Shown: positions 259 through 19,378, counted from the stretch's first letter. The stretch is DNA of 19,378 nt from a virus (IMGVR_UViG_3300029337_000248:1-19378); one strand, 5' to 3'. The notes: generated from the sequence alone by a model not told the origin. Program-made: numbers and translations.

Positions 259-267
259 TCGTCTGAC

Positions 268-300
268 AAGCCCTCGCGTTGAGGGCTTTACTGATTTTTT
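268..300 (+). terminator. Hairpin (AAGCCCTC-gcgtt-GAGGGCTT) followed by a T-run, lying between convergent grxA and ybjM; probable intrinsic terminator
   Basis: Perfect 8-bp inverted repeat at 268-288 with a 5-nt loop, T6 at 295-300; the T-run is several nt from the stem, so moderate confidence. Confidence 0.45.
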
Positions 301-665: not shown

Positions 666-934
666 TCGTTCCTCCTGACACTGCGTCTATCGAACACATT
701 TTTCGCCAGTGTGGCGTTCAGTAAGATAAAGCCGCTTCGCATTCCATGCTAATATAGGCCAACGCAATTCATATAGCCGTTGATACCTAATGTGATTACA
801 CTAGTAAAATATATTGTTACTTTACTATCGTTTAGGTGCGCTGAATGAATCTGCGCCCTGAATTCTGGTAAAAAACATTATCGTAAATTACCATTTCTTT
901 CAACAGCTTACTAGTAAACAAGAAGTTAGCCTCC

Positions 935-2620: not shown

Positions 2621-2726
2621 AACTGAAGTTGCCCTGAAAATGAAATTTTTTTGCACAACCGCAGAACTTTTCCGCAGGGCATCAGTCTTAATTAGTGCCA
2701 CTGCTTTTCTTTGATGTCCCCATTTT

Positions 2727-2772
2727 GTGGAGCCCATCAACCCCGCCATTTCGGTTCAAGGTTGATGGGTTT
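2727..2772 (+). terminator. Intrinsic terminator downstream of ybjL; probably the last host-type feature before the prophage end
   Basis: Perfect 10-bp stem CCCATCAACC / GGTTGATGGG with a structured loop, followed by TTTTTTGTT on the + strand; no U-run in the minus-strand reading. Confidence 0.6.
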
Positions 2773-2855
2773 TTTGTTGCCTGAAATTTATACCTTTTAA
2801 AATCATGATGTTAGAAGCACTGCTTTTTAACGATGGCGACAAAATGGCGGCAGCG

Positions 2856-3074
2856 TCAAAGAGAGAGCGCCACCTGTCCTGATTTCATTGGATGCGGCTG
2901 AACCGGATTTGACTCTTTTGGCGTTGCAATCGAACGAACAAAAGTTTCATGGGTAACAAAAGTATGGCTGCAGTTAATGTTCTGGCACTGGTTGTAACGC
3001 TCTTTGGTCAATGAAGATACCTGAAAACTGCTGCGAGTATGGGCGGCACTTCCACACAGTGGGCAAATCATCAT
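2856..3074 (-). CDS. ogr: Ogr/B-family zinc-finger late-gene transcription activator
   Basis: ~72 aa product from the internal Met (MMICPLCGSAAH...ERYNQCQNINCSHTF) carrying the CPLC...CQN.NC zinc-finger pattern of P2 Ogr / 186 B; immediately downstream of D as in P2. GGGGAG lies ~10 nt upstream of the chosen ATG. Confidence 0.85.
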   Translation of the reverse strand: MMICPLCGSAAHTRSSFQVSSLTKERYNQCQNINCSHTFVTHETFVRSIATPKESNPVQPHPMKSGQVALSL

Positions 3075-3164
3075 TTTTCGAGTTCTCCCCATTTTTGCTA
3101 AATTCACAATAATGATACCGTATTATTCCATTTTGCAAACTTAAAAGTTCTCCATTGCGAAGAA

Positions 3165-4265
3165 TCATTCCATTTCGAAATCATCAATCCTCACTTCAAG
3201 CTCCAGACTGGTCGTAAAACCGTTATCCGGGCTGACGGTATGTGTCAGAGTCGTAATGGTCCATTCCGCATCATCTATCGGCTGTTTAAAACCACTGACT
3301 TTCACTGGCATTTCCGTGTAGAGATCTGCCCGACCTTCCGCCAGTTGTAGCGAGAATGACGCAACGCCGCGTTGCAGGCGTTCCCACTGCATTTTCGCCG
3401 CTCGTTCGGCGTTGCTCCGGTTGGCATAAGTGCGATTAAGTACCAGCACGTTTTCATCCGTACCCACCAGGTAATCGCCCTGCTTCGCTTCCGGCTCTTT
3501 CGTCTGCTTCTTAGTCCTGCGCTTACGCTTCACCGTGGTGCTTTCTTTCTTCGAGGGTTCGCGAGTATGCAACCAGCTGGCAATTACGCCCGTGTAAGCT
3601 CCGCGATCTGCCAGGGTAAAGCGGTGACTGTCGCCGTCCTTACGTGTGATAGTGATCACCGGTAGTGGTTTACCGCTGGCGCTTTTACCCTGTCCCTGTC
3701 GGATGAATAACAGATTGCCATTTTTCACCGACGCAATAGCACCGTACTGGCGCGCCAGCCGCATCAGAAAACTGCCGTCACTCTCATTGGTCTGGTCTAA
3801 ATGTTCCACGGTTTTATCTGACAGGTCTTTACCCAATGCCATCTTCAGTTTGTGCCGCGCAGCTATTTCCTTCACCACTTCCCCAACGGTGGTCTTGTGC
3901 CACGACTTTTCACGGCGGGTATTCAGCGTTTCACGAAAATCAGCACTTCGCGCCCGGATAGTCAGGCGGTCCGGTGCGCCAGTGTGTTCAATCTCGTCCA
4001 CCGTGAATGTCCCTTTCGGGAAAAGCGGCTGCCCCTTCCAGCCCAGCGCCAGCGTAATGACCGCACCACGGCGCGGCAGCACGATTTTTCCGTCGGCGTC
4101 GTCCAGCTCCAGATCAAGCTGGTCCGCTTCAAAGCCCCGATTGTCCGTCAGCGTCAAACTCATCAGGCGGTTATCCAGCACAGTGGTGATATCCCTGCCC
4201 TCAATACTGATGCTGAATGCGGGAGTTTTGTTGCCTTTGTTAAGCAGTTCAGAGCTGAAATTCAC
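3165..4265 (-). CDS. D: Phage late control / tail protein D (P2 gpD family)
   Basis: 366 aa ORF, the last gene of the T-U-D order, read on the minus strand; size and sequence character fit P2 gpD (recalled ~387 aa). Confidence 0.85.
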   Translation of the reverse strand: MNFSSELLNKGNKTPAFSISIEGRDITTVLDNRLMSLTLTDNRGFEADQLDLELDDADGKIVLPRRGAVITLALGWKGQPLFPKGTFTVDEIEHTGAPDRLTIRARSADFRETLNTRREKSWHKTTVGEVVKEIAARHKLKMALGKDLSDKTVEHLDQTNESDGSFLMRLARQYGAIASVKNGNLLFIRQGQGKSASGKPLPVITITRKDGDSHRFTLADRGAYTGVIASWLHTREPSKKESTTVKRKRRTKKQTKEPEAKQGDYLVGTDENVLVLNRTYANRSNAERAAKMQWERLQRGVASFSLQLAEGRADLYTEMPVKVSGFKQPIDDAEWTITTLTHTVSPDNGFTTSLELEVRIDDFEME

Positions 4266-4747
4266 GACAGCAGCCCTCCCACCGTTTTACTGATATCGCT
4301 TAAAGCAGACGTTGCCATGTCCTGCAGATTATTCAGTTGCGCACTGAGATCACCGAACATATCGGACAGGGATTCATCCACCCGTTTGAGCGACAGGGTG
4401 AACTCAATCCGGCGCGGCATACCGTCGCGGAAAAACTCCGTTTTAGTCTGATTCAGTCCCTCAATCACATACATGCCATAAATCGTGCCGCTGCCTTCAA
4501 TCAGGGGCCATGCTTTCCCCTGTTCTGCCATCTGCTCCAGCGCCAGCAGCGACAGCCTGCCACCTGTTATCTCCGGCATAAGAACACCGGAAAGCGTCAG
4601 CATGTCGTTGTCCGGTCCCAGAAACTGCGTGGACGGACGTCGGTTTACCCGGCTGTTTGCCGCATGTCGCCAGTTGCGTTGATACTGCAGCTCCTGATAC
4701 GGCACGGTGCGCAGCATAAACACGTACAATCCCAGCACCATCATCAT
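4262..4747 (-). CDS. U: Phage tail protein U (P2 gpU family)
   Basis: 161 aa ORF whose stop overlaps the D start by 4 nt (ATGA), between the T fragment and D; size matches P2 gpU (~160 aa). Confidence 0.85.
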   Translation of the reverse strand: MMMVLGLYVFMLRTVPYQELQYQRNWRHAANSRVNRRPSTQFLGPDNDMLTLSGVLMPEITGGRLSLLALEQMAEQGKAWPLIEGSGTIYGMYVIEGLNQTKTEFFRDGMPRRIEFTLSLKRVDESLSDMFGDLSAQLNNLQDMATSALSDISKTVGGLLS

Positions 4748-5448
4748 GCGTCGTATCCCCCCTGATCGCTGTAGTTACTCCTGGCTTTTGCCTTCAACCT
4801 GCGTTCACGTTCATCAAGCTGGCGGGCCACCTCCCGCGCAATATCCTGCGCACTTTGTCCTGGCTGCGTCTGGATGATGATCTGCGTCGGTGCCTCAATC
4901 CTGTAAACGGGCGGCACAGTGGCTGCGCGACTCACAATTGCTTCTCCACCTTTCGCGGGAAGTGCCAAAGGGTGCAACGGTGGAAGCTCTGCTGGTGCGG
5001 CAGCAACGCCCATCATTCCGGCAACAACGGCAGCCAGTGCAGCTGTATTTCTCCGGCTAGTCACATTTGCCGGGCCGTTAACAATTTCCGGCCCGTTTTC
5101 ACCGACGATGCCAAACTGCCCGCGCGGGATATACCCGCCGCTGTCATACATCCCCGCAAAGCCATATCCCCATGATGGAAAACCACCCGATGGCATCATC
5201 ACTTTACCGTCTGCATTCACCGTCGCAGGTTGCTGACGCGTCACGCTTTCCGGCAGTTTTGCCTTTGCGGCCTCTTTACTGACAATGCCGAGCTTCTCCA
5301 GCAACCAGGAAACGCCGGATTTCAGGGAGTCCAGCGGATGCATGACCATATTCAGCCCTTCCGCCAGTGCCTCCCCGAATCTCCGCCCCATTGCCGCTGC
5401 ACTCTGCAGTTCGGCAGAGGTCGACTTAACGGGCGTCAACCGTAACAA
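4744..5448 (-). pseudogene. T: Tail tape-measure protein T, C-terminal fragment only (5' part deleted)
   Basis: 234 aa ORF directly upstream of U in the T-U-D order; P2 gpT is ~815 aa from memory, and the reading frame runs straight into the terminase fragment on the opposite strand with no E/E' or other tail genes upstream. Confidence 0.7.
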
Positions 5449-6865
5449 AGGCCCGCGCCGTCAGCCGGAAAAGAACGTTTTCACCGATGAACAGATTGAG
5501 AAGCTGGAAGAAATCTTCCATTCCTCCATGTTCAACTACCAGCGCCACTGGTGGGAAGCCGGAAAAACCAACCGCATCCGCAACCTGCTGAAGTCACGCC
5601 AGATCGGCGCGACCTTCTATTTTGCCCGTGAAGCCCTGATTGACGCCCTGCTAACCGGGCGTAACCAGATTTTCCTTTCCGCCAGCAAGGCTCAGGCCCA
5701 CGTCTTTAAGCAGTACATCATCGACTTCGCCAAAGAAGTGGAGGTGGAGCTGAAAGGCGATCCGATGGTGCTTCCTAACGGGGCCACGCTTTACTTCCTC
5801 GGCACCAATGCCCGCACTGCCCAGAGTTATCACGGCAACCTGTATCTGGATGAATATTTCTGGATACCGAAATTCCAGGAGCTGCGCAAAGTGGCTTCCG
5901 GTATGGCTATTCACAAGAAATGGCGACAAACCTATTTTTCCACGCCATCCAGCCTGACTCATAGTGCTTATCCGTTCTGGTCCGGTGCGCTGTTCAACCG
6001 TGGGCGCAACAAAGCCGATAAGGTGGACATCGACCTGTCCCACAGCAATCTGGCCCCCGGCCAGCTGTGCGCCGACGGGCAATACCGCCAGATAGTCACC
6101 GTGGAAGATGCGGTGCGCGGCGGCTGTAACCTGTTCGACCTTGACCAGTTGCGCATGGAGTACAGCCCGGACGAATACCAGAACCTGCTGATGTGCGAGT
6201 TTGTGGACGATCTCGCGTCCGTGTTTCCGCTCAGCGAGCTGCAGGCGTGCATGGTGGACAGTTGGGAAGTCTGGACCGACTTTCATGCTCTGGCCCTGCG
6301 CCCATTTGGCTGGCGCGAAGTGTGGATCGGTTATGACCCGGCAAAAGGTACGCAGAACGGCGACAGCGCCGGATGCGTGGTGGTGGCACCGCCAGCCGTG
6401 CCAGGCGGTAAGTTTCGCATTCTCGAGCGTCACCAGTGGCGCGGGATGGACTTCCGTGCCCAGGCGGACGCAATCAAAAAACTGACCGAGCAGTACAACG
6501 TGACCTACATCGGCATCGACTCAACCGGCGTTGGTCACGGGGTTTACGAGAACGTGAAAGCGTTCTTTCCTGCCGTCCGGGAGTTTGTCTACAACCCCAA
6601 CGTTAAAAACGCCCTGGTACTCAAGGCCTACGACATTATCAGCCACCGCCGTCTGGAGTTTGACGCCGGACACACCGACATAGCGCAGTCCTTTATGGCA
6701 ATCCGTCGCTCCACCACCGCCAGTGGCAACCGCCCGACCTATGAAGCCAGCCGCAGCGAAGAAGCCAGCCACGCCGATCTGGCATGGGCAACGATGCACG
6801 CACTGTTTAACGAACCGCTGCAGGGCGAATCCGCCAATACCAGCAATATTGTGGAGATTTTTTGA
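5449..6865 (+). pseudogene. P: Terminase large (ATPase/nuclease) subunit P, N-terminally truncated
   Basis: ORF 5285-6865 translates to a terminase-like protein (C-terminal nuclease-type segment ...YIGIDSTGVGHG...) and is followed by portal Q with a 4-nt overlap. Its first ~55 codons overlap the T fragment on the other strand, so the homologous part starts near 5450-5475, well short of the ~590 aa I recall for P2 gpP. Boundary is approximate. Confidence 0.7.
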
Positions 6866-7890
6866 TGGGAAAGAGTAAGAAAAACCGCGCAGCGGCGATG
6901 AATCAGATCCAGCATAAAAGCCAGACTTCAGCCGAAGCATTCAGCTTCGGCGATCCCGTTCCTGTTCTGGACCGTCGCGAACTGCTGGACTATGTGGAAT
7001 GCGTACAGATGGACCGCTGGTATGAGCCGCCTGTGAGTTTCGACGGCCTGGCGCGAACATTCCGCGCCGCCGTACACCACAGCTCACCGATTGCAGTAAA
7101 GTGCAACATTCTGACCAGCACCTATATCCCTCACCCACTGCTCAGCCAGCAGGCTTTTTCACGTTTTGTGCAGGACTATCTGGTATTTGGTAACGCCTAC
7201 CTGGAGAAACGCACGAACCGCTTCGGTGAAGTTATCGCCCTTGAACCTGCGCTGGCAAAATACACCCGACGCGGGTTAGACCTGGATACCTACTGGTTTG
7301 TGCAATACGGCATGACTACGCAGCCGTATCAGTTCACGAAAGGCAGCATCTTTCATCTGATGGAACCGGATATCAACCAGGAGATCTACGGCCTGCCCGG
7401 TTATCTTTCTGCCATTCCGTCAGCCCTGCTCAACGAGTCCGCCACGTTGTTCCGCCGTAAGTATTACATCAACGGCAGCCATGCAGGCTTCATCATGTAC
7501 ATGACCGATGCCGCGCAGAATCAGGAGGATGTGAACAACCTCCGCAACGCGATGAAAAGCGCCAAAGGTCCAGGCAACTTCCGCAACCTGTTTATGTACT
7601 CACCTAACGGCAAAAAAGACGGGCTTCAGATCATCCCATTGTCAGAAGTCGCGGCGAAGGATGAATTTCTTAACATCAAGAACGTGAGTCGGGATGACAT
7701 GATGGCAGCGCACCGCGTGCCGCCGCAAATGATGGGGATTATGCCGAATAATGTTGGGGGGTTTGGGGATGTGGAGAAAGCAAGTAAAGTGTTTGTACGA
7801 AACGAACTTATACCATTACAAAAACGCTTAGGAGAGATAAATGAATGGCTTGATAAAAAAATAATAGAATTTGAAATATATTCATTCTGA
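6862..7890 (+). CDS. Q: Portal (capsid vertex) protein Q
   Basis: 342 aa ORF immediately downstream of P with overlapping stop/start, matching the P-then-Q order and ~344 aa size of P2 gpQ. Confidence 0.85.
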   Translation: MMGKSKKNRAAAMNQIQHKSQTSAEAFSFGDPVPVLDRRELLDYVECVQMDRWYEPPVSFDGLARTFRAAVHHSSPIAVKCNILTSTYIPHPLLSQQAFSRFVQDYLVFGNAYLEKRTNRFGEVIALEPALAKYTRRGLDLDTYWFVQYGMTTQPYQFTKGSIFHLMEPDINQEIYGLPGYLSAIPSALLNESATLFRRKYYINGSHAGFIMYMTDAAQNQEDVNNLRNAMKSAKGPGNFRNLFMYSPNGKKDGLQIIPLSEVAAKDEFLNIKNVSRDDMMAAHRVPPQMMGIMPNNVGGFGDVEKASKVFVRNELIPLQKRLGEINEWLDKKIIEFEIYSF

Positions 7891-7947
7891 TACATTTACA
7901 TAACTTAATAGGACATCCATCGCTCAACACATAATAAGAAAAAAACT

Positions 7948-7965
7948 ACGGCACTACCGTGCCGT
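7948..7965 (-). terminator. Intrinsic terminator for the three-gene cargo operon (possibly bidirectional with Q)
   Basis: Stem ACGGCAC / GTGCCGT with loop TACC; in the minus-strand reading the hairpin is followed by AGTTTTTTTCTTATT, and it lies 10 nt past the stop of the 7975-8472 gene. Confidence 0.6.
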
Positions 7966-7974
7966 AACAAATTA

Positions 7975-8472
7975 TCACTTTAAGAATTTTTTCTGATAAG
8001 ACTCATCAATTAGAGATTTAATTATTTTCGCCCTTTTTGACACTAATACACTAATTCTTGTCCTTTGACTTTTATCATACTCCTGTGCTTTTTCAATATT
8101 AGATGTAGCATCTTTGAATAAATCAGCAATCAAAGGTTTATAGTCACCTTCGATATTAATGCGTTGTTTTAGATGATTCAACCACCGCTCGGTCTCCGCA
8201 AGAAGTGCTGTTATCTCATTTTGAAATGACATTGCATCAATTTCTTTTGAATCTCCCGGTATCCAAAACTTTCTTGATGCAGATTCAATTTCCTTTAAAT
8301 TATCTGAAACATTTTTTACAATTGCCCATGTTTCACTCCTCTTTTGCAACGCACGGGAGTTTCTATAAACAAAAACCCAACCAATCAAGGCTGTTAGAAT
8401 TGCAATCACACCTGAACTAGCAAGGTATTGTAATAACCGCAGATAAACCGGAAGTTCATCCATGAACATCAC
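7975..8472 (-). CDS. Single-pass membrane protein of unknown function (candidate effector), third gene of the cargo operon
   Basis: 165 aa ORF; one predicted transmembrane helix near the N-terminus (LLQYLASSGVIAILTALIGWVFVY), then a charged, likely helical domain; start overlaps the stop of the upstream gene by 4 nt; AT-rich codon usage. Confidence 0.75.
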   Translation of the reverse strand: MMFMDELPVYLRLLQYLASSGVIAILTALIGWVFVYRNSRALQKRSETWAIVKNVSDNLKEIESASRKFWIPGDSKEIDAMSFQNEITALLAETERWLNHLKQRINIEGDYKPLIADLFKDATSNIEKAQEYDKSQRTRISVLVSKRAKIIKSLIDESYQKKFLK

Positions 8473-8789
8473 TCCTTTTTAGCATCAGAAATATATCCCC
8501 ATATACTATCCTTGAGGAAATCCAAATCAGTAAATATTTTTAATTTTTTCCTAATTATAGCTTTATCTATATTATTTGTTCTATAAAGTCCACCAAACGC
8601 CTCTTCCAAGAATGAAGAACCATAACCCATAGCACCATCAAGGTACACGTGCACCTCATCATAATCTTGGATGGCTTTCAAAAGATACTTTTCACGGAAA
8701 CGTTGTCCATTATCAGGACCATCCTCATCATAGCGGCCATAGGGAACATCTGAAAAATCTTCAGCAACATGTATCTCTTTGATTTTCAT
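8469..8789 (-). CDS. Small acidic protein, candidate STAS-like (anti-sigma-antagonist-like / DUF4325-like) partner, second gene of the cargo operon
   Basis: 106 aa ORF translationally coupled (4-nt overlaps) to both neighbours. Size and a ...LDGAMGYGSSFLEEAF... segment with adjacent serines resemble the phosphorylatable region of STAS/SpoIIAA-like proteins. The family call is by eye and tentative. Confidence 0.7.
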   Translation of the reverse strand: MKIKEIHVAEDFSDVPYGRYDEDGPDNGQRFREKYLLKAIQDYDEVHVYLDGAMGYGSSFLEEAFGGLYRTNNIDKAIIRKKLKIFTDLDFLKDSIWGYISDAKKE

Positions 8790-9853
8790 TCAGCACCTCT
8801 CAAACTTACATTCCATTGAATAAGGGTTCCACCTATGGAGTATGGCAGATCAAATTTATCTTCAACATTATTTTCAGCATCATAAGAATATCGTCCCATT
8901 CCACTAAAAATATGTAACTGCCCCTCAGGGTTATCTACAACATACCTTTTCATATCAGGTAATCCTTTACCATGCTTCTGACTATTCATTCTTGTCTCAC
9001 CATACTGTACAGCCGCGAATATTTTATCAGAATCCGTCTTAGGATTAAATATCTGAGCGATAAATGTGAAAAAGTCTTTTTTAACCAATGTAACTGGGAT
9101 ACCTTCTCCCATATCATACACCATCAAAAATAGTTGTTCTTCGACTTTGTGTGCCAATATCCACCATCTTTTACCAATGTCCTCAATAAATTCAGAGAAC
9201 TGTTCTTCATTTGAATACGCATGTAGACCAACATTGCTAATAGATTCAGTTAAGGCTGCATATAATTTCACACCATCCGAAGCGGAAATCTTACCTTCAT
9301 AAATGGTATCTTTTATATAACGTAGAATATTTTTAATTTTTTGTCTTGCTTCGGCACTTTCATGATCATCTCTAGTTTTGCCTGCAACAGCGGAAACAAT
9401 TTCCATTGAATTAAGCTTATCTGCAGCTATACGCTGAAACCCTGTAATCCCCCAAATACCACATATTTTAAACCAGTTATTTGCCCTGGATGAACCGCAC
9501 GTAGTAATAGAAATTATATTTTTATCTTTTGTTTGCCTTTGTAAAAAGTCAATATGTGCATACAATACGATTACTGCACATGCTTTCAGAGATTTTGTAT
9601 TTCTGAAATCTATTAAAATTTTCTCACCATCATTGATGTAATCTCTGATTAAAGTGATAAACTCTATAAATAGTTTGTAATTTTTAGTATTAAATAAGTC
9701 CAATGACGCAGGCGCGGGTATTCTCACACGAGAGAATACCCGCATGGGCTGTAGCATCCGTCTTCCACCAGAAAGCTTTCTTGACTCCCGCTTCGCAATC
9801 TTCCTTGCTCTGATCAAAGAATGTTCAATTTGTTCTTCAGTTAGCCGCTTCAT
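8786..9853 (-). CDS. GHKL-type (histidine-kinase-like / anti-sigma-kinase-like) ATPase with an unassigned ~190 aa N-terminal domain, first gene of the cargo operon
   Basis: C-terminal half carries Bergerat-fold motifs in order: N-box TESISNVGLHAY (E-x3-N-x3-H-[GA]-Y as in SpoIIAB/RsbW), G1 box YDMGEGIP (DxGxG), G2 box HGKGLPD, G3 GGTLIQW. Start placed at the internal Met (MKRLTEEQ...) because GAGGAAAGG precedes it; the longer ORF reaches 9898. Confidence 0.75.
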   Translation of the reverse strand: MKRLTEEQIEHSLIRARKIAKRESRKLSGGRRMLQPMRVFSRVRIPAPASLDLFNTKNYKLFIEFITLIRDYINDGEKILIDFRNTKSLKACAVIVLYAHIDFLQRQTKDKNIISITTCGSSRANNWFKICGIWGITGFQRIAADKLNSMEIVSAVAGKTRDDHESAEARQKIKNILRYIKDTIYEGKISASDGVKLYAALTESISNVGLHAYSNEEQFSEFIEDIGKRWWILAHKVEEQLFLMVYDMGEGIPVTLVKKDFFTFIAQIFNPKTDSDKIFAAVQYGETRMNSQKHGKGLPDMKRYVVDNPEGQLHIFSGMGRYSYDAENNVEDKFDLPYSIGGTLIQWNVSLRGAE

Positions 9854-10000
9854 ATCCTTTCCTCGATAGTTGTTGAAGCTTATCAGTTCACGCAACAACT
9901 ACAAACATCTACCTGCTATCTTAAAGCAACAATTTGAAAGAACATTGAAAATCATAGTATCTGTTTGTAAACAAACGACTGTTTCTATACCTTGCGCGCG

Positions 10001-10019
10001 CTCGTATCCCCGCCACGCC
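10001..10019 (-). other. cos-like cohesive-end site
   Basis: Minus-strand reading GGCGTGGCGGGGATACGAG; the first 12 nt match the cohesive-end sequence I recall for 186 (GGCGTGGCGGGGAAAGCAT) and P2 (GGCGAGGCGGGGAAAGCAC). Located in the A-to-Q interval where cos is expected. Confidence 0.6.
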
Positions 10020-10050
10020 TGCCCGCTTTATGTAGTAGTTTTCATGCACC

Positions 10051-10151
10051 TGCATGACATGAGCAAAAGCCCGCCAGTTCTGGCATGTCTTAGCCAAACC
10101 GATCCTCAAACGATCATGCGAACCCATGCAGCATAGACATGCATGACATGA
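10051..10151. repeat. Direct repeats of TGCATGACATGA (10051-10062 and 10140-10151) flanking cos, within a CATG-rich cluster
   Basis: Two exact 12-bp copies 89 bp apart, read directly from the sequence; TGGCATGTC also occurs twice (10081-10089 and 10252-10260). Confidence 0.7.
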
Positions 10152-10201
10152 AAATCGGTCAAACCTTGAAACCAGTCATAAATATGAGCCAGCTTAATAC
10201 A

Positions 10202-10387
10202 CACTAAATAGCTGCGTCTAATACTGCTACACCTGCCGTTTACTGACATGTGGCATGTCGCGTAAGGACAACATACTGTAGGCCAGATACAGCAGGATCA
10301 GGCGAAGAAAACGGCCCCACGCCTTACCCAGCAAGGGCCAAGGGCTAACCGAAAGTGGAGCATTATTCCGCGCAGTTATTTAGTGTC
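10202..10387. repeat. ~186 bp segment bounded by 16-bp inverted repeats (ACACTAAATAGCTGCG ... CGCAGTTATTTAGTGT, 15/16 match)
   Basis: Inverted repeat read directly from the sequence; the interior is non-coding, relatively GC-rich and holds a small hairpin (GACATG-tgg-CATGTC). Nature unknown: structured RNA or MITE-like relic. Confidence 0.5.
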
Positions 10388-10492
10388 AGCTCTTTTGAGC
10401 TAAAATCAAGTTTCAACATGAGGGTCTGTGCAGGCTTTCTCATCCCGCTAATTTATACAGCACACCTATATGGCTATGAGTTTGTCATGCCC

Positions 10493-10524
10493 GCTAATCC
10501 TGTTAGGATTAGCCTTGTTTTTTT
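10493..10524 (+). terminator. Terminator-like hairpin immediately upstream of the lipoprotein gene
   Basis: Perfect 9-bp stem GCTAATCCT / AGGATTAGC with loop GTT, followed by CTTGTTTTTTT; ends 17 nt before the ATG at 10542. Confidence 0.5.
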
Positions 10525-10541
10525 ACGATTGGGATAGGGAT

Positions 10542-11348
10542 ATGAAGAAATTAACTGGCGTAATTGCTTTTGCTCTGCTGCTTACTGCTTGTGACAAACC
10601 GAAGATCGATGCATCAAGCGATCAGTCGATGAAAGAGTCCATTCAAAAAGTAAGAGAGTCCTTACCTGCAGATAAAAAAGCTCAGTTTGATGATGCAGTT
10701 AAAGTCGTTGCCTTTAGCCAAATCAACATGAGAGAGCTAATGCAGGCTGGAACGTCTTCTGGGGACGTCTACGAAACAAAAATTAAGTCAGCGTTGGAAG
10801 GTAAAACTGGTGATGAGGTTATAAATTACGCACAAACTATTCGCCTTGAGCGTGAGAAGAGAGAGAAAGAACAGGCTCTGCAAGAAATAAAAGAACTGGA
10901 AGCCAAACAAACCTCTGCAACACAGGCTGCGGAAAAAATGAAAGCCTTCAAGGTCGAACGTTCCCGTTTTTATTTCCAGAAAGAGGATTACGGCAATGAT
11001 CAGCCAATTCTGGATATTAGCGTTGAAAACGGAACAGACAAAGCGGTTGCCAGAGTATTCTTCAAAGGAGTTATTGCCAGCCCAGGAAGAAGCGTCCCTT
11101 GGTTCTCTGACGTCTTCAACTATAAAATTTCTGGAGGTCTGGAACCAGGTGAGAAAGCCAACTGGAAATTAGCCCCTAATAGATACTCTGATTGGGGAAA
11201 ACTTAAAGTTCCGGCTGATGCTATATTTACCGTCACAGTCATTGGCCTTGAAGACGCAGATGGGAAATCGATCTATGGTGACGCCGAGTTTTCAGAACGC
11301 GATGCTGACAGACTGAATCAACTTAGAGATAAGTACCTTTCTAAATAA
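10542..11348 (+). CDS. Lipoprotein of unknown function (~268 aa), candidate superinfection-exclusion or lysogenic-conversion protein
   Basis: Start chosen at MKKLTGVIAFALLLTAC with a lipobox (LLTAC); the track ORF starts upstream at 10470 but that part covers the terminator hairpin. Central lysine/glutamate-rich predicted coiled coil, then a C-terminal globular region. Confidence 0.75.
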   Translation: MKKLTGVIAFALLLTACDKPKIDASSDQSMKESIQKVRESLPADKKAQFDDAVKVVAFSQINMRELMQAGTSSGDVYETKIKSALEGKTGDEVINYAQTIRLEREKREKEQALQEIKELEAKQTSATQAAEKMKAFKVERSRFYFQKEDYGNDQPILDISVENGTDKAVARVFFKGVIASPGRSVPWFSDVFNYKISGGLEPGEKANWKLAPNRYSDWGKLKVPADAIFTVTVIGLEDADGKSIYGDAEFSERDADRLNQLRDKYLSK

Positions 11349-11456
11349 TCAAAATTAAAGCTACTTCAGCATAGTCCCTGAGAATATATATCAGGGACTA
11401 CCAAATCACGGCAGATACCCCTTAGTTAAATAATGCTAAACGCTTAGAAAGAGACC

Positions 11457-11756
11457 ATGAAACGTATAACTTTCTCCTTTACGTTAGTAGCAATCATCAT
11501 AGCCTTAGCTGGATGTGCTTTGCCAGATAAAGACGGCGACTTCGGAGCTTATGTTCATGCCTGTCAGCAATATGCATACGGAAAATCCTATGCCTTTGAG
11601 AATAGAGACTTCGCGTATAAGGTCTGTAAGGACGCGGCGAAACTGTGGAGTGAAGAAGTTCCTGGCTATATCATCAGGCAAATTCAACTACATCCTGAAA
11701 TACCCAGCGAAGAAATTAAATATGCAGCCATGGCCGGCTCTTTGGGTAACAACTAA
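11457..11756 (+). CDS. Small lipoprotein of unknown function (99 aa)
   Basis: Signal peptide with lipobox (IALAGC), mature ~80 aa with 4 Cys; co-directional with the upstream lipoprotein gene. Confidence 0.7.
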   Translation: MKRITFSFTLVAIIIALAGCALPDKDGDFGAYVHACQQYAYGKSYAFENRDFAYKVCKDAAKLWSEEVPGYIIRQIQLHPEIPSEEIKYAAMAGSLGNN

Positions 11757-11770
11757 ATCAACTTATGAGA

Positions 11771-11793
11771 AAGGGGCTTAATGCCCCTTTTCG
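11771..11793. terminator. Bidirectional intrinsic terminator between convergent genes
   Basis: Stem GGGGC / GCCCC with loop TTAAT; flanked by T-rich sequence on the + strand (TTTTCGG) and, more weakly, on the minus strand (TTTCTCAT). Confidence 0.6.
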
Positions 11794-11823
11794 GTTCCCT
11801 TATCAAGTCCTAACGAAACAAGC

Positions 11824-12010
11824 TCAACTGATTACATCCATCGACCTACTGTATTCATGGCTTCGAATTTTCGCCATCAACTCATCAGTCAATTCAGAAA
11901 CCCACTGCAGAGCTAGCCCCTTCTCTTCATCACTACACTCACTAGCCGCTACAAGCTTAAGAAAAAAATCAATGCGCTGGAGCTTCAAAGACTCCAAAAA
12001 ATAGTCCTGC
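11824..12010 (-). CDS. Small hypothetical protein (62 aa) downstream of replication gene A
   Basis: Strong RBS (AGGAGGAAAG) directly before ATG (MQDYFLESLK...); the track ORF extends to 12114 but lacks an RBS at its first Met. Sits where P2 carries orf91/tin/old. Confidence 0.6.
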
Positions 12011-12165
12011 ATCTTTCCTCCTATAACACCATACGCAATACTGTACATATAACCACTGTTTATATTTACAGTATATAATAATCTTACTGATGTAAAACGT
12101 TTTTTTACGTTCATCAGCCTGATATGCCTGGTATTATTAAGAGCACGAATTGTTAACCCGCGTGA

Positions 12166-14580
12166 TTAATACAGGTTCCGCCACTTATCATCTTCCTGCA
12201 AACGCTGGTTCCGATAGAAGATACGCAGGCCTGCTCCTGACGGAATACTGCCACCGCAAAGGAGCAAATCGACCTCTTTCTCGCTGCCATCAAATCCTCT
12301 GGACTTCAGTTCATAGACGAGCTGCTGACGCTGATACTCTGTAATTCGCTGTTTGTAGTCTTTACGCCGTTTCGGTTTAACCAGGCGCAATCTTGCTGCC
12401 AGTTCCCGGCGCTCTTTTTTGCTCATACTGTGCAGGTAATCGTGCAATTCCTTGTCATCCATGCAGGTAATGTCCGTTCTGGTATCCCCATCTGCTGATT
12501 CATCTTTCTCATGTTGGTTCAAATTTTCAGCAAGGGGACAGTTATTGCCACGAGTCCAAGGGGCGCAAGCGCCCTGGTCGGCTGCCGCCTCCTGAACGTC
12601 AACGGCTTTACGAACCATTTTCCACTTCACTGCATGAGTGCAGATCTTGCCCTCTGCAATGGGTGACCAGATGCCATAAATACGAATGCCGTGATCGCCA
12701 TAGGCGGTCGGCTCTTCGTTGATTTCATAAGCGGTTCTGATGAGGTGATATTTACGGGGAACCAGTACGCCGCCCTGTTTCATGATGTAGGTGGCAAAAC
12801 AACCAGCATCAGCAGCAGCCAGAATGGCATCAAGACGCGGGTTATCCAGTACCGGCGCACCTGCTTTTTTGTCACCCTGTTGCCTTGCCGCCTGACCAGC
12901 CAGCAAGCGAAGTTCACGGTAAGCCTGACGCCCCGGAATACCAAAGAAGCGGAATTGCTGAACACGATGCAGAGACGCCCAGGCATTCACGTATTCAGCG
13001 TTATCACGCAGAGATTTACCCGTTTCCTTGCTGATCTCGCCAACCAGACCACGACCGTCAATGTTCTTACTGATATATTTCGCGATGTAGCTTGTCGGCG
13101 TTCCTTTGCGCGGGTTAATCAACTCAGACTTAAAGCGCGGCCCAGTGTTATTGCCCAGCTCCTCGCGGTCTTCACGGATGGCAAACTTACGCAGTAATGC
13201 AGTGATGGCACGGCGGTCTTTTTTGCGCATGAAACACAACAGGTGCCAGTGAACTGTGCCATCATGATGCGGCTCAGCCACCCGCACGCCATACCAGCGC
13301 AACCCGGCTTTGTGCATCGCCTTACGAAATGCAGCAAACATGCCGACCAGATAATCGCTGCTTTGTCTTACCGTCGCGTTTGTCCAGGTCGGGTTTGGTC
13401 TGCCGTTATTTAGCGTGGAATGGAAACGCGACGGACAGGTGATAGTGTAGAAAACGGCGCAGTCACCGCGCATTTCCGCGATAAGCTCCAGACCTTTAAC
13501 ACAGGCCATCATCTCATTGCGGCGATGCGCAGGGTTGCTGCTGCTGGCGTTTACCACATCCTCCATGTCCAGCGTGTCGCCGTCTTCGTTCACCAGTTCA
13601 TGAGAACGGAAAAACTCCAGCGACTTACGGCGCTGCTCACGTTTATGCATCACGGCTTCATAGCTGACATAAGGAGATGCTTTTTTGCTGACCAGGCAAA
13701 CAGCGCGCAACTGCTCTTCCCGCCATTCGCAACGCATCTTCCATAATTTCCGATACCACCAGTCGGCGCACAACATACGCGCCAGCGAACCCGGAATGAG
13801 TTCATAGGGCACGGGTTTGCGGCGGTTTCTTTTCCGACGGAGTTGCTCAAACGCAGGTGGGATGACATCCAGACGCAGGGTTTCCGCTGCCACCTTTTCC
13901 CATGTCTTGCGGATTTCTTCTGGCTTAACGTCATCGGTGGCATACAAATCACCACAAGCTGCATCAAGGCACATACTCATATGCGCAGCTACCAGGGTGG
14001 ACAGGCGTTTCACCTGATCCTGACTCATTTCAGGCAGGATCAGCAGGCCGTCCAGCCCTTCATGGCTTGCCATAAAGCGAAAAGATGCAGATAGCTGACT
14101 GTCGCGTACATGCTCCAGTCGTTCCAGACATGGCTTAATCGTCTCACGTAAATAGCGGGAATAAGCCTTTGGCCTGCCCAGGCTGCTGAAGTATTCAATA
14201 CGTTGCATCAGCGGCTTGCTGATATGGGAAGGCTGGGCGTTGACGTCCGCCAGAATGACCATGTCTGAATTAAAACGCTGCTGCTCATGCGCCAGCTTTG
14301 CCCGGCTAATGAGCTTATCCTGCTCCATTTCGCGCTGGACAGGATCACGTGATTCATTAAAGAAATAACGCTCCCAGACCTGATCACTCAGTGCCTCGCG
14401 GCGCAACTGTTCCTGCTCGTTATCGGCAGCGTACAGAGTGATCAGGTTTGAAAGCGTAGAAACCGGCGCAACTTCCGCCGGGTCCAGATAAGGGTTAATG
14501 GCCTTTTTCGGGCTGTTCCATGAGAATGCTGCGGCAGCCTCGTTAAAGCCGCAGCAGTTGTTCATATCGGCATGACTCAT
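12166..14580 (-). CDS. A: Replication initiation protein A (rolling-circle replication endonuclease, P2 gpA / 186 A family)
   Basis: 804 aa ORF containing the rolling-circle active-site tyrosine motif ([16 protein letters not shown]); position at the end of the early operon matches P2/186. Confidence 0.9.
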
Positions 14581-15434
14581 GCACGTACTCCGTACACGGC
14601 AGAACTATCCACGCCACGCGAATAATCAAATCCCATCCAGCAGCGCGGCCCGGAAACAGCAATGATTTCTGTTGCTGATTTACCCTCGCCAGCTGCCACA
14701 CCGATGCTGCGTTTTACCTTGATATAGTGGTGAGTAAAATTGCGATACAGCGAACGGATCAGGGATGTGTCACTGTTAGAAACAATGACCGGATGTCCTT
14801 CTGATGACCGATGTTCAAGAACGGATGCCAGGTGATACTGGTCATCTTCAGTGAAACCATCAGTGTGATAACCGGAAAACGTACCGTCATATGGCGGATC
14901 GCAATACACCACATCTCCCGCCTTCAACATCGTCAGCGTTTCATCAAAGCTGGCGCAGATAAACGTTGCTCGCTGGGCTTTTTCTGCAAATGTGCGAAGT
15001 TCTTTTTCAGGGAAATACGGATTTTTATAATTACCGTAGGGAATGTTGAAATGCCCGCTCTTGTTATAGCGACATAAACCACGGTAACCGTGACGATTGA
15101 GATACAGGAAATATACCGCTTTCATGAAATCAGTAATTTCAGTTGAGCAGTTAAACTCCTGCCTTATGTTGTAATAAGCCACCTCCCTGTTTGCGATCTC
15201 AAATAAAACTCTGGCGCGAGATATAAACGATTCACAATCAGCGGCAACCTTTTTATAGAGGTTGATTAAATCAGGATTAATATCCGCAACCAGATAGCTG
15301 GGATAATCCGTTTCCATCATCACAGCACAGGAACCCGCGAAAGGTTCAACCAGTCGCGGGCCAGCAGGAAGGTATTTTTTCAGTTCTGGCATAATGGCGG
15401 TTTTATTTCCCGCCCATTTCAGGATGGTGCTCAT
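14577..15434 (-). CDS. DNA adenine methyltransferase (Dam-like, N6-adenine class)
   Basis: Motif I region ILKWAGNK...FAGSCAV and catalytic DPPY ([10 protein letters not shown]). Start set at the internal Met (MSTILKW...) preceded by GGAGGTG; stop overlaps the A start (ATGA). Confidence 0.85.
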
Positions 15435-15658
15435 ACAGCACCTCCGTTGTAATGTTTGCCTTTCAGTTCTGCGATTTCCTGACAGGTAATGCAAAGCTGC
15501 ACTCCCGGAATGGCGCGGCGTCGTGCTGGCGGAATTGGCGCTTCACATTCAATGCAAAGTACGCGTGACACGCCCGGTGATTTGGCACGGGCTGCACGGA
15601 TATGGCGCTGGCGTTCTTCTTCAACGCGCTGCTGTACGAGATCCATTGCATCAGCCAT
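15431..15658 (-). CDS. TraR/DksA-family C4 zinc-finger protein
   Basis: 75 aa with CxxC...CxxC (CIECEAPI...CITCQE); a small protein of this type is typical of the P2/186 early region; stop overlaps the Dam start. Confidence 0.75.
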   Translation of the reverse strand: MADAMDLVQQRVEEERQRHIRAARAKSPGVSRVLCIECEAPIPPARRRAIPGVQLCITCQEIAELKGKHYNGGAV

Positions 15659-15897
15659 TAGTGGATCTCCTGCGCTTCGTTCTGGATTGCTTCAGCAGTC
15701 ACGCGCAGCAGTTCTGCCGCTTCCACGTGGTTTAGCTGGCGGGATGAGATATAACACGCCAGGCTATCAAGGCGAGCAGCCATTGCTTCAGCCCTTGCCC
15801 GGCGTTCTTCCAGACGAGCCTCTGTCAGTAAAATATTAAGCCCTGCGTCATCCGGTCCGGTTTTAGTCATGAGGGTTTCAATATTACGCATAATCAA
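15658..15897 (-). CDS. Hypothetical phage early protein (79 aa)
   Basis: ORF in operon register with its neighbours in the early (minus-strand) operon; no recognisable motif. Confidence 0.55.
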   Translation of the reverse strand: MIMRNIETLMTKTGPDDAGLNILLTEARLEERRARAEAMAARLDSLACYISSRQLNHVEAAELLRVTAEAIQNEAQEIH

Positions 15898-15958
15898 TTC
15901 TCCTGAATTTAGATAAAGGGATGCCCGGCGGGTTTACGCCATTAATTTCATTAGTTGG

Positions 15959-16300
15959 TTAATTCGGCATGGTTAGCCGTCTGGGAAATAAGCTCACCAC
16001 TGCACGAAAATGATTCATTGCTTTAATCAACTCCCGCTTTTCGTCAGTGGTCAGCTCATTAATGCTGATGCTATGACGTTCAGCTGGAATTTTTGCCATA
16101 AAGAATATGGCAGCCAGTGCCCTTTTATTTTGTTCATTATTGATATCCCATGGATCACGCATATCTTTAATAAACCGCTCAAGCTCTGACTCAATATTCA
16201 GGCCAAAAACTTTCGCCCTTAACTCCGCAATGTGATTAAGTCCATTCAGGCGTTCACCGGGGCTTAATGGAACAGTTGCTGCAGTGCCTTCAATAGCCAT
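15959..16300 (-). CDS. Hypothetical phage early protein (113 aa)
   Basis: ORF with GGGGGA RBS ~6 nt upstream of ATG; lies where 186 carries early genes such as fil/dhr, but no specific assignment is possible by eye. Confidence 0.6.
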   Translation of the reverse strand: MAIEGTAATVPLSPGERLNGLNHIAELRAKVFGLNIESELERFIKDMRDPWDINNEQNKRALAAIFFMAKIPAERHSISINELTTDEKRELIKAMNHFRAVVSLFPRRLTMPN

Positions 16301-16464
16301 TTGTTCCCCCGTTTTTTCGTAGATAGTTCTGCCAGCAATTCATCTTGTGAACGGCACGGATGCCAGCGTTTACCATCCTCCCCCATGATCCAGCCGTGAC
16401 CGTAATGCATTGCCGGGCTTTGTTTAACCAGCAGCGATGCAAATGATGGTTCTTTCGTCAGCAT
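16264..16464 (-). CDS. Hypothetical phage early protein (~66 aa)
   Basis: Start placed at the internal Met (MLTKEPSF...) preceded by GAGGTG, which avoids overlap with the cII stop; the track ORF extends to 16494. Confidence 0.5.
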   Translation of the reverse strand: MLTKEPSFASLLVKQSPAMHYGHGWIMGEDGKRWHPCRSQDELLAELSTKKRGNKWLLKALQQLFH

Positions 16465-16471
16465 AAGCACC

Positions 16472-16981
16472 TCACAGCAAACCAAATGAAGCACCGAGGC
16501 CAGTCACGGTATCAACTGCACTCGCCATCGCAGGATTAGCCTGTAAACGGGCCTGCAATGAAACAGCCGCCAGCGCCATCAGTCGTGTTACAGAGTTAAT
16601 GCTGCTGATAGCATCACGACGACCGGCACAGGTTTTTACATCGCCAGACACCGCACCTGCAGCAACACGCCCGATCTCTGCGGTTGCACTCATGACGTAA
16701 TGTGGCAGTTTCTCTTTTGCCACCTCATTAATCGGTACACATGGCAGACAATGAATCTGTGCCAGAAAACCATCTACCAGCGTTGAATCTTCAGTCAGAT
16801 CGGTAAGCAGCCAGATTTCTGGTGCGGTTAATAAATGAGGCTGAGCTGGGTTCAGCTTGTTCCGCAGAATCTGCACATTCATGCCTGCACGTTCTGCCAG
16901 TTGCACCAGATTGTGGCGCAGTGCAAATGCACGACAGGCTTCATCAAAATGTGGATGTTTGGAAACTTGGTAATCAAACAT
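16472..16981 (-). CDS. cII: CII-like lysogeny establishment activator (186 CII family)
   Basis: 169 aa from the Met at 16981 ([19 protein letters not shown]...); length and sequence closely match 186 CII as I recall it; AGAGG RBS 7 nt upstream. Confidence 0.85.
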
Positions 16982-17013
16982 GGTCAATGCCTCTGATGTA
17001 TTTCAGAATCGAA

Positions 17014-17235
17014 CTAATTAAGGTTTAGATTGCATTCTGAAAGCGCATCAACGGTCATTGCTGCTATGTTGATCATCACTTTTTCGCGTTTTTTATCTTT
17101 GCGCAGACGGTGACGGATAAGGCGTCCATCAGCCAACATATCATTGATGGTATCGATGGATAGCCCTGTCAGCTCGCTATAGCGTTCAATAGTCACATGA
17201 GGCGTGGTAAGAGTGATTGAAATGTTAGGTCTCAT
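17014..17235 (-). CDS. apl: Apl/Cox-like excisionase and transcriptional regulator
   Basis: 73 aa HTH-containing protein, first gene of the minus-strand early operon and divergent from cI, as apl in 186; GAGGAA RBS upstream. Confidence 0.75.
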
Positions 17236-17307
17236 GATGCAACATTCCTCGTTTAATGATGATTAATCAGGACGAATACGGATCGTTTGTATTTTGTGAA
17301 CACCATA

Positions 17308-17336
17308 AACATACGATCGCACAGTGAAATCGTCAA
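17308..17336 (-). promoter_or_regulatory. Candidate early lytic promoter (pR-like) for apl-cII
   Basis: Minus-strand TTGACG - 17 nt - TATGTT in the cI/apl intergenic region, oriented toward apl. Confidence 0.4.
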
Positions 17337-17354
17337 GATAAAAGTTCACTTGGA

Positions 17355-17930
17355 GTGACCATGAATTTGGAGAAAGGCGGACGAGGCGCCATAGAGCGCA
17401 TGGTAGAAGCTTATGGATTCAAGACTCGACAGGCGTTGTGCGATCATTTAGGAATCTCTAAAAGTACACTCGCCACACGCTACATGCGTGACTCATTCCC
17501 AGCAGAATGGGTAATCCAGTGCGCCCTTGAAACAGGCACCTCGCTTAATTGGCTCACAACCGGGCATGGTTCAAAGCAAACTTCAGGTAATACAAATACT
17601 ATGGAAGTTGCTAAATATGTATTATCTGATGGGGCCTTGTGTGAAGACGGTTTTTATATTTTCGATAGAGAATTTCTACCGTCGGCATTCAAGAATCTTT
17701 TTGTAATCACAGATAATAATTCTGAATTTATTTGTGATAAGGAATTTGATGATATACGTGATGGTAAATGGGTAATAAGTATTGATGGCGAAATAACGAT
17801 CCGTGACATTACTCGTTTACCCGGTGGAAGAATCTTCGTCGAGGGTGGAAACAGAGCCTTCGAATGTAAGATAGAAGACATTGAAATAATTGGTAAAATT
17901 ATAAGTTTAACAGTCAAGTATGTTAAATAG
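17355..17930 (+). CDS. cI: CI-like immunity repressor (186 CI family)
   Basis: 191 aa (186 CI is ~192 aa) with an N-terminal HTH region (QALCDHLGISKSTLATRYMR); divergent from apl and upstream of int; GGAG RBS. Confidence 0.85.
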   Translation: MTMNLEKGGRGAIERMVEAYGFKTRQALCDHLGISKSTLATRYMRDSFPAEWVIQCALETGTSLNWLTTGHGSKQTSGNTNTMEVAKYVLSDGALCEDGFYIFDREFLPSAFKNLFVITDNNSEFICDKEFDDIRDGKWVISIDGEITIRDITRLPGGRIFVEGGNRAFECKIEDIEIIGKIISLTVKYVK

Positions 17931-17945
17931 TACCGGGAGGAAATT

Positions 17946-18137
17946 ATGCTTGGTAAGGTATTTTTTGTGGTTTTGTCATGTTCTTTGTTATTAAACCCAC
18001 TAGCTACCTATGCTAGAAATTATCCCTGCTCAGGGAAAAAGGGAGGTGTTTCTCACTGTACCTCTGATGGCAAATTCGTTTGCAATGATGGAACTATTAG
18101 TAAATCCAAAAAAATCTGTACTAAAAACTCACGATAA
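17946..18137 (+). CDS. Small secreted cysteine-rich protein (63 aa precursor) between cI and int
   Basis: Strong RBS (GGGAGG, 7 nt spacing); N-terminal signal peptide ([23 protein letters not shown]) and a ~40 aa mature part with 4 Cys. Confidence 0.7.
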
Positions 18138-18325
18138 CTTTTGCTTTTATATCTGCGCCTAAAATAAAAATGAGCCACAGGTTAACCGCAAAAGTTACAT
18201 GATCACATAGCAAAAAGAATAGCCTACTTCATTATGGCTTCAGTGAGATGTATGGTCGCAGGATTTCATACATTGACACTGGTTATACATACAGTAAAAA
18301 TGCTCTCTATTGGAGGGCATTTTTT

Positions 18326-19378
18326 ATGGCTGTACGAAAACTCACCACAGGAAAATGGCTTTGCGAATGTTACCCCGCCGGACGTAGTGGGCGTCGTGTG
18401 CGTAAACAATTCGCCACCAAAGGCGAAGCACTGGCTTTTGAGCGTCACACGATGGAAGAAACCGAAGCAAAGCCCTGGCTAGGTGAATCAGTGGATCGTC
18501 GAACACTGAAAGACGTGGTTGAGCTATGGTTCAAACTACATGGTAAATCACTGACTGCTGGGCAGCATGTCTATGACAAATTGCTGCTGATGGTTGACGC
18601 TCTGGGCAATCCCCTTGCAACTGATCTCACCTCTAAAATGTTTGCCCACTATCGAGATAAACGCCTGACAGGTGAGATCTACTTCAGCGAGAAATGGAAG
18701 AAAGGAGCAAGCCCGGTCACCATTAACCTGGAGCAAAGCTATCTAAGTAGTGTTTTTAGCGAACTATCCCGCCTGGGCGAATGGTCGTATCCGAACCCAC
18801 TGGAGAACATGCGAAAATTCACCATCGCAGAAAAAGAGATGGCATGGCTTACCCATGAGCAGATTGTTGAATTACTGGCTGATTGCAAACGTCAGGACCC
18901 AATTCTGGCACTGGTAGTTAAGATATGCTTAAGCACAGGCGCACGCTGGCGAGAAGCCGTAAATCTTACTCGTTCACAGGTGACCAAATACCGAATTACC
19001 TTTGTAAGAACGAAGGGGAAGAAAAACAGAAGCATCCCTATCAGTAAAGAGCTTTACGAAGAGATCATGGCGCTTGATGGGTTCAATTTCTTCACAGACT
19101 GCTATTTTCAATTTTTATCCGTGATGGAAAAAACGTCTATCGTGCTCCCTCGCGGTCAACTCACACACGTTCTGCGCCATACGTTTGCGGCGCACTTCAT
19201 GATGTCGGGTGGAAACATTCTGGCCTTACAAAAAATTCTCGGACACCACGATATAAAAATGACTATGCGTTACGCACATCTGGCACCGGATCATCTGGAA
19301 ACGGCGCTCCGTTTCAATCCTCTGGCAACGCTGCCAAGTGGCGACAAAGTGGCGGCAGCGGTTGGCATTACCCCGTAA
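18326..19378 (+). CDS. int: Tyrosine integrase (P2/186 Int family)
   Basis: 350 aa from the Met at 18326 (MAVRKLTTGKW...), preceded by GGAGG; catalytic signature residues in order (...GARWREA..., ...HVLRHTFAAH..., ...MRYAHL...); located at the prophage end next to cI. Confidence 0.9.
   Translation: MAVRKLTTGKWLCECYPAGRSGRRVRKQFATKGEALAFERHTMEETEAKPWLGESVDRRTLKDVVELWFKLHGKSLTAGQHVYDKLLLMVDALGNPLATDLTSKMFAHYRDKRLTGEIYFSEKWKKGASPVTINLEQSYLSSVFSELSRLGEWSYPNPLENMRKFTIAEKEMAWLTHEQIVELLADCKRQDPILALVVKICLSTGARWREAVNLTRSQVTKYRITFVRTKGKKNRSIPISKELYEEIMALDGFNFFTDCYFQFLSVMEKTSIVLPRGQLTHVLRHTFAAHFMMSGGNILALQKILGHHDIKMTMRYAHLAPDHLETALRFNPLATLPSGDKVAAAVGITP

Follow-up and report, generated by a model that had tools for sequence, protein, structure and literature searches.

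A YdcA-family moron between the repressor and integrase genes of a 186-like prophage: a probably exported, cysteine-rich mini-protein with a tentative role in excluding incoming DNA

In this work, we have used computational approaches to characterize a small gene present in a 19,378-nucleotide stretch of viral DNA (IMGVR_UViG_3300029337_000248, positions 1 to 19,378; "the window" denotes this whole stretch). Our results show that the open reading frame (ORF) of 63 codons located between the repressor gene cI and the integrase gene int is a prophage-borne paralogue of the YdcA family, an entity that has already been catalogued, and that, as a moron, it is linked to the immunity module. Purifying selection on the gene is strong, and it is extreme in the mature part of the product. 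That the ORF encodes a real exported protein of the YdcA family is, in our judgement, close to certain, and it can be inferred with good support that this protein is exported, disulfide-bonded and periplasmic. As the best explanation of the observations taken as a whole, we tentatively propose that the YdcA-family product is made together with CI, resides in the periplasm and may protect the lysogen against incoming DNA.

The ORF scored 114.6 bits with the NCBIfam model NF007463 (PRK10040.1-2, YdcA family), whose curated cut-off is 93 (E = 1.3e-33), and matched PHROG 6000 with E = 3.1e-34; PF27300 is precomputed on the identical database protein (P0001) and on nearly all homologues. Among 5.8 billion proteins searched, 64 relatives came up, several of them named 'YdcA family protein', and an exhaustive profile search gave 459 clusters at 50% identity. 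The RefSeq product name of identical copies is either 'hypothetical protein' or 'YdcA family protein'. The gene had first been noticed in a sequence-only reading of the window, made by a model without database searches, which took the product for an unknown peptide; this part has to be abandoned, as the family is catalogued and has a chromosomal paralogue in Escherichia coli K-12. Identity to the K-12-type YdcA is 57%, and the equivalog model built for the K-12 protein, NF007462, gave 68.5 bits, below its cut-off of 118. A sub-threshold, GULLO2-like hit in our local copy of Pfam, which PF27300 postdates, was discarded as a chance match (E = 0.076). The literature under the name ydcA deals mostly with unrelated genes (a B. 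subtilis rhomboid, a plasmid methylase and a gonococcal island gene).

The sequence-only reading had described a precursor of 63 amino acids with a strong ribosome-binding site, a signal peptide and four cysteines in a mature part of about 40 residues, and all these features were recovered here. The leader consists of one lysine, a hydrophobic stretch and then the residues T-Y-A; in an alignment of 25 family sequences the alanine at position -1 (A23) is invariant, and the remainder of the leader diverges freely. These features predict export by Sec and cleavage after Ala23. A lipoprotein reading of the 'LSC' in the leader was rejected, since VLSC at residues 9-12 misfits the lipobox and Cys12 is absent from most homologues; the window protein differs in this from the lipoprotein exclusion factors of the Cor, Llp and Ltp type, for which a lipobox with a conserved +1 cysteine is a defining feature. 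In the mature part, the four cysteines (C28, C38, C46 and C58) are invariant in the same 25 sequences together with P27, S29, K32, G33, G34, F44, D48, G49, S52, S54 and K55, all of them still nearly invariant in an alignment of 120 sequences, and H37 is nearly invariant in the smaller alignment. The window protein carries the four-cysteine motif PCSGxKGG..C...FxCxDGxxSxSKxxC. Its mature peptide (40 residues, 4.29 kDa) is strongly basic, with an isoelectric point (pI) of 9.7 and nine Lys/Arg against two Asp, and a net positive charge of the core domain was found in 98 of 102 family domains. AlphaFold2 modelled a small fold with two short strands, at moderate confidence (pLDDT 75-78, with 78 for the mature peptide).

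Comparison of the mature region with the copy carried by E. coli BL21 revealed nine synonymous differences and none that changes a residue (synonymous divergence, dS, 0.48; non-synonymous divergence, dN, 0). A copy located behind another cI allele differs by three amino-acid changes, with saturation at synonymous sites. All 87 copies gathered from IMG/VR and from E. coli genomes are intact; 11 codons of the mature region are polymorphic among them, with K24R as the sole residue change. The 80 IMG/VR loci returned are near-identical copies of the same prophage, and they served for this polymorphism count and do not sample diversity. The sequence-only reading had made its proposal depend on conservation of the ORF in related prophages, and the ORF is indeed kept there. 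With at least 80% coverage and at about 93-100% identity, 590 of 5,426 complete E. coli genomes (about 11%) carry the 395-bp stretch that lies between the cI stop and the start of int; BL21 and ATCC 8739 are among them, with the module at 96% and 94% identity, respectively. The YdcA family as such was found on 505 IMG/VR contigs, in 27 phage genomes and on 58 PLSDB plasmids, and phages of Moraxella and Acinetobacter carry members of it among their tail genes. On pApiMCR53a, a MOBQ mobilisable plasmid of Acinetobacter pittii (3,916 bp), the YdcA homologue (L175, 728-904) is one of five genes and adjoins a TraD-like gene.

The location claimed at first, in the lysogenic operon between cI and int, is borne out by the Pfam matches of both flanking genes (Table 1). 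The suggestion that the gene is a moron also stands, because the slot is empty in phage 186 and in SopEPhi, where cI abuts int, and because related phages have other cargo in it: Escherichia phage vB_EcoM-813R9 encodes there a protein of 558 amino acids that matches the defence model PD-Lambda-1 (E = 3e-120; locus L004, 4091-5764), and Klebsiella phage 4LV2017 a protein of 349 amino acids without known function. In two E. coli prophages with diverged cI alleles the order is cI, YdcA, P-loop NTPase and int; diverged alleles followed by a YdcA gene were seen in E. coli ST131 and in strain 23CRST044. The KAP P-loop NTPase just downstream of the YdcA gene in locus L012 (3839-5167), the one covered by the scan, matches the PADLOC candidate PDC-S20 with E = 1e-171, and a P-loop NTPase gene has the same position in locus L010 (3255-4586). 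A defence hotspot between cI and int has been described in K139-like phages by Rousset et al. (PMC9122126).

The cassette in the window spans 17931 to about 18267, roughly 340 bp, and similarity to int modules with other cargo starts at about 18266-18268; its G+C content is about 31-39%, compared with about 47-55% in int. The region is matched by 1,107 E. coli records, and in a sample spread over them all those that match the 3' half of cI also match the ORF, while the int side varies. Yersinia prophages, with a cI of only about 40% identity, again have the order cI-ydcA-int. An unannotated YdcA gene of 60 codons is present in Haemophilus phages HP2 and S2; its ATG overlaps the cI stop (TAATG), and it is followed by another secreted ORF and then by int; a search of phage genomes gave no YdcA match in Haemophilus phage HP1. 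Over 78 species loci, the family most often has phage repressors (PHROG 4, nine times) and integrases as its immediate neighbours.

Expression of the gene together with cI in lysogens is probable. In phage 186 the lysogenic operon runs from pL through cI to int, and in the window the cI stop is separated from the ATG of the small ORF by 16 nt; since a consensus scan found no promoter-like or terminator-like site between the two, and since the corresponding HP2 genes overlap, the gene is likely co-transcribed with cI from pL. A sigma-70 promoter-like site on the - strand (17898-17926, TTAACA-17-TATAAT, 11/12 matches) points antisense into the 3' end of cI, and such sites are no commoner than in shuffled sequence. 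Downstream of the ORF, the stem-loop in the 3' untranslated part of the cassette (-15.6 kcal/mol, z = -3.0) lacks a U-run after it. The hairpin before int is more stable (-21.1 kcal/mol, z = -5.4, with none of 200 shuffles as stable). It has an A-run on one side and a U-run on the other, its end is 2 nt away from the int ATG, and the Shine-Dalgarno sequence of int, GGAGGG (18312-18317), is buried in its 3' arm. It was missed by the consensus terminator scan and revealed by RNA folding, and it is part of the int module, being common to Klebsiella phages with other cargo. Its likely function is to keep int apart from the cI-ydcA message, either as an attenuator or terminator or by blocking translation. 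A promoter-like site (TTGACA-17-AAAAAT, 18273-18301) overlaps this hairpin. An Rfam search of 17000-19378 gave nothing relevant.

Table 1. Features of the cI-ydcA-int region of the window
Feature	Position	Strand	Basis
cI repressor gene (186 type), first gene of the lysogenic operon	17361..17930	+	PF07022, E = 2.8e-33; PF16452, E = 2.7e-27
cI stop codon	17928-17930	+	
Shine-Dalgarno sequence GGGAGG of the small ORF	17935-17940	+	Read from the sequence; 5 nt upstream of the ATG
ydcA-like gene, 63 codons and stop	17946..18137	+	ORF list, NF007463, PHROG 6000, PF27300
Predicted Sec signal peptide, residues 1-23, predicted cleavage after Ala23	17946..18014	+	Sequence features and family conservation
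Mature 40-amino-acid peptide, four invariant Cys	18015..18134	+	Alignment, charge/pI, dN/dS, AlphaFold2
Stem-loop in the 3' untranslated part of the cassette	18135..18197	+	15-nt arms, 18135-18149 and 18183-18197
Hairpin before int	18296..18324	+	Inverted repeat, perfect 13 bp, RNA fold
Integrase gene (P2 type)	18326..19378	+	PF24624 and PF00589; RefSeq annotation of homologues

The window ends at the stop codon of the integrase gene. The longest reading frame of cI opens at a GTG (17355), and the ATG equivalent to 17361 is the start used by the RefSeq homologues; at the same place in BL21 and ATCC 8739 the RefSeq label is 'phage repressor protein CI'. To the left of cI, on the opposite strand, lie an Apl-sized gene and a CII/CP76 gene. 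The sequence-only reading had regarded the backbone as P2-like; these CI, Apl and CII genes show that it is 186-like and not of the P2 type (C/Cox). The prophage is defective in the 2856-7890 region, because the capsid, lysis and tail block found between the corresponding genes in P2 is missing: gpD (3165-4262, - strand), gpU (4262-4744, - strand) and a truncated ORF (4744-5445, - strand) run straight into the terminase gene gpP (5285-6862, + strand) and the portal gene gpQ (6862-7887, + strand). A host permease gene (935-2617, Asp-Al_Ex and TrkA_C) flanks the prophage. Between gpQ and gpA, at the classical defence hotspot of P2, there are four cargo ORFs (7975-11348), three on the - strand encoding 165, 106 and 370 amino acids and one on the + strand encoding a DUF6694 protein of 292 amino acids; a PADLOC scan gave no match for any of the four. 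In the related element of BL21, cII and gpA are truncated.

Two further observations on the family bear on what the protein may do. First, several longer family members consist of a signal peptide, a YdcA domain and then a nuclease. The partner is Endonuclease_NS in five proteins and in a complete Crenothrix gene, SNase in one protein and a PLD-type domain in another (the fusion proteins are P0095, P0133, P0149, P0160, P0172, P0186 and P0212, and L138, 1732-2655). The same N-terminal module in front of three unrelated nuclease folds suggests one of two things, binding of nucleic acids or a common role in localisation. Second, the family profile matches Dis2 of Legionella (Lpg0823; 7MUC chain AN), the only solved candidate relative, with E = 1.7e-4, improving to 3.3e-6 with a profile of 120 sequences, and the match runs through the motif CS-K-GGI--C ... 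VCN-G--S. Dis2 was also the Foldseek top match for both models (probability 0.77-0.80, 36-38% identity). Profiles alone reach Dis2, single-sequence PDB searches with tandem family members having been weak or empty, and the relationship between Dis2 and the YdcA domain is statistically modest. Tandem proteins with two or three YdcA domains exist elsewhere in the family, and Dis2 appears to be a tandem duplication of this widespread domain.

We propose that the ydcA-like gene would be transcribed with cI from the lysogenic promoter pL, and that the message would mostly end, or int translation would be blocked, at the hairpin before int, so that lysogens would make CI and the YdcA-like protein and little Int. 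The precursor would then be exported by Sec and cut after Ala23, and its four cysteines would be oxidised into two disulfides, to yield a strongly basic periplasmic mini-domain of 40 residues, probably located near the outer membrane as is Dis2, its likely distant relative. There it might protect the lysogen from incoming foreign DNA, by superinfection exclusion of phages and possibly by interference with conjugative or transforming DNA, through binding of a polyanion, most likely DNA, or of an outer-membrane-proximal entry complex. The link to a polyanion or DNA is suggested by the fusions to nuclease domains and by the net positive charge of the core domain, and a use of the slot in competition between phages by the presence of PD-Lambda-1, PDC-S20 and the glo gene of Vibrio phage K139 at this place in relatives. 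Such an exclusion or DNA-entry mechanism is our best guess, and it is a doubtful one. The sequence-only reading had hesitated between a periplasmic exclusion peptide and a lysogenic-conversion factor, and the genomic context favours exclusion.

Several points weigh against this proposal. We found no experiment and no expression data for this gene, pL could not be located on the + strand by the consensus scan, and a scan of the ORF with PADLOC-DB 2.0 gave no family at E <= 1. The 78 species loci have very diverse neighbourhoods and no conserved partner gene. The K-12 chromosomal paralogue lies in a non-phage context (cybB-ydcA-hokB-trg) and the links reported for it, which are indirect, are with tolerance to acid and to 3-hydroxypropionate and not with phages (PMC7642389). 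The argument for DNA binding is drawn from the fusions and the charge, and these fusions would be just as compatible with a tag that localises secreted enzymes. Deletion of dis2 in Legionella has subtle phenotypes only (PMC12716638), and homology to the Glo protein of K139 was rejected (hhalign probability 1%).

The link of the K-12 paralogue to stress tolerance leads to the alternative that comes closest, and that we consider possible and nearly as likely as exclusion, namely that the product is a lysogenic-conversion factor for host fitness. The prophage copy would do the job of the chromosomal YdcA, a periplasmic one in tolerance to envelope, acid or organic-acid stress, and would be retained for the benefit that an extra dosage, made constitutively from pL, brings to the host, not for any block to phages. 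Such a role is consistent with the degree of identity to the K-12-type protein, with the many non-phage chromosomal contexts of the family, and with the fact that the gene is intact in decayed prophages, that of BL21 with its truncated genes and that of the window without head and tail genes. Deletion of ydcA sensitises E. coli W to 3-hydroxypropionate, and the gene has been reported to be acid-induced under YdcI (PMC7642389). However, this phenotype is a single indirect report, and the score below the NF007462 cut-off means that an equivalent function is not assured. A fitness role moreover leaves unexplained both the tight and repeated placement of the gene behind repressors and in a defence hotspot, and the nuclease fusions.

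It is unlikely, in our view, that the protein is a passive structural adaptor of an outer-membrane machine, which would dock in the manner of Dis2 on outer-membrane lipoproteins or peptidoglycan-associated proteins and slightly tune a secretion, pilus or uptake apparatus, with no direct exclusion of DNA. Dis2 does contact DotK, DotC and DotD near the outer membrane (PMC12716638), a homologue adjoins the TraD-like gene on the small plasmid described above, and one UniRef cluster is named 'Conjugal transfer protein'. Nevertheless, type IV secretion genes are absent from the window and from most family neighbourhoods, Dis2 has two lobes and five disulfides where the window protein has one lobe and four cysteines, and a mature peptide so highly conserved from one order to another speaks for a universal ligand and not for a lineage-specific machine. 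Less probable still is a periplasmic metal-binding or redox mini-protein that would use the four cysteines and one histidine. Invariance of the cysteines and near-invariance of H37 would fit it, as would the DUF2946 and PepSY_TM genes that adjoin the homologue in Atlantibacter and Citrobacter, families that are often found in metal-uptake clusters; but this context was seen in a single narrow lineage, DsbA normally oxidises cysteines in the periplasm, and the cysteines of Dis2 form disulfides in the cryo-electron microscopy map (PMC8486379). Finally, the bacteriocin-like product also envisaged in the sequence-only reading, an antimicrobial or defensin-like peptide released against competitors, would suit a small, cationic and presumably disulfide-stabilised molecule, but is very improbable given an ordinary Sec leader in place of a double-glycine one, the absence of any adjacent immunity, processing or export gene here and in the 78 other loci, a chromosomal paralogue in E. 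coli genomes that has no immunity partner, and the use of the domain as N-terminal module of larger enzymes.

Returning to the exclusion proposal, there is a wider and more speculative version of it, which we consider improbable as it stands. The YdcA domain would be a hitherto unrecognised periplasmic mini-fold that binds DNA or a DNA-entry complex; mobile elements would put it behind a repressor or on small plasmids to block rival DNA, its tandem form Dis2 would have been recruited into the type IV secretion channel of Legionella, and its fused forms would arm secreted nucleases. If true, this would add to the superinfection- or entry-exclusion proteins a class that is both new and very widespread. 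The cI-ydcA-int module is present in about one in nine complete E. coli genomes, the workhorse BL21 among them, with relatives in many phages and plasmids of other Proteobacteria, and the YdcA family also includes the core-genome paralogue ydcA. There are now three handles on it: a fixed place in the immunity module, next to the repressor in a slot otherwise used by anti-phage genes; a likely structural relative in Dis2; and repeated fusions to secreted nucleases. They turn a 'hypothetical protein' into testable ideas, exclusion of incoming DNA versus stress tolerance; if neither holds, the gene is one more conserved prophage moron.

How does the window protein compare with known systems? The nearest is YdcA of E. 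coli K-12 (b1419), which has the same architecture, a predicted Sec leader followed by one domain, about 35 residues long, that carries the motif PCSGxKGG(V/I)SHC and four cysteines. The window gene is its paralogue and not its equivalog, and is carried on a prophage directly behind cI instead of in the chromosomal ydcA locus. Dis2 is cysteine-rich like the window protein and exported, as the latter is predicted to be, and has been described as Legionella-specific and without homologues (PMC12716638). It is a protein of 124 amino acids whose two similar tandem lobes are held by five disulfides; it lies beside the outer membrane (PMC8486379) and is a stoichiometric part of a secretion machine, the Dot/Icm system, whereas the genes of the window are those of the prophage and one host permease gene, and none belongs to a secretion system. 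A more distant connection may lie with DUF3761 (PF12587). The family member P0065 (197 amino acids, three YdcA domains) has precomputed hits to both PF27300 and PF12587, which suggests that the two families are related, and the window protein gave no PF12587 match at E <= 1. DUF3761 shares a motif of the type C-x-DG-x-x-S ... GGV. A phage-encoded DUF3761 protein with a signal peptide has been found in a lysis cassette (PMC11131426).

The comparison that bears most directly on position is with the related peduovirus K139 of Vibrio, in which the order is PL, cI, orf2, glo and int, so that Glo occupies the same operon slot. Glo has a signal peptide; its annotation reads 'periplasmic protein; involved in phage exclusion', and the literature refers to it as a soluble exclusion protein of the periplasm (PMC3952083). 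It is larger (137 amino acids), not cysteine-rich and separated from cI by orf2, whereas the window protein is encoded directly behind cI. Glo would be an analogue of the window protein by position and compartment only, and it is in these two respects that the YdcA-family product may resemble an exclusion factor encoded in the lysogenic operon of a related phage.
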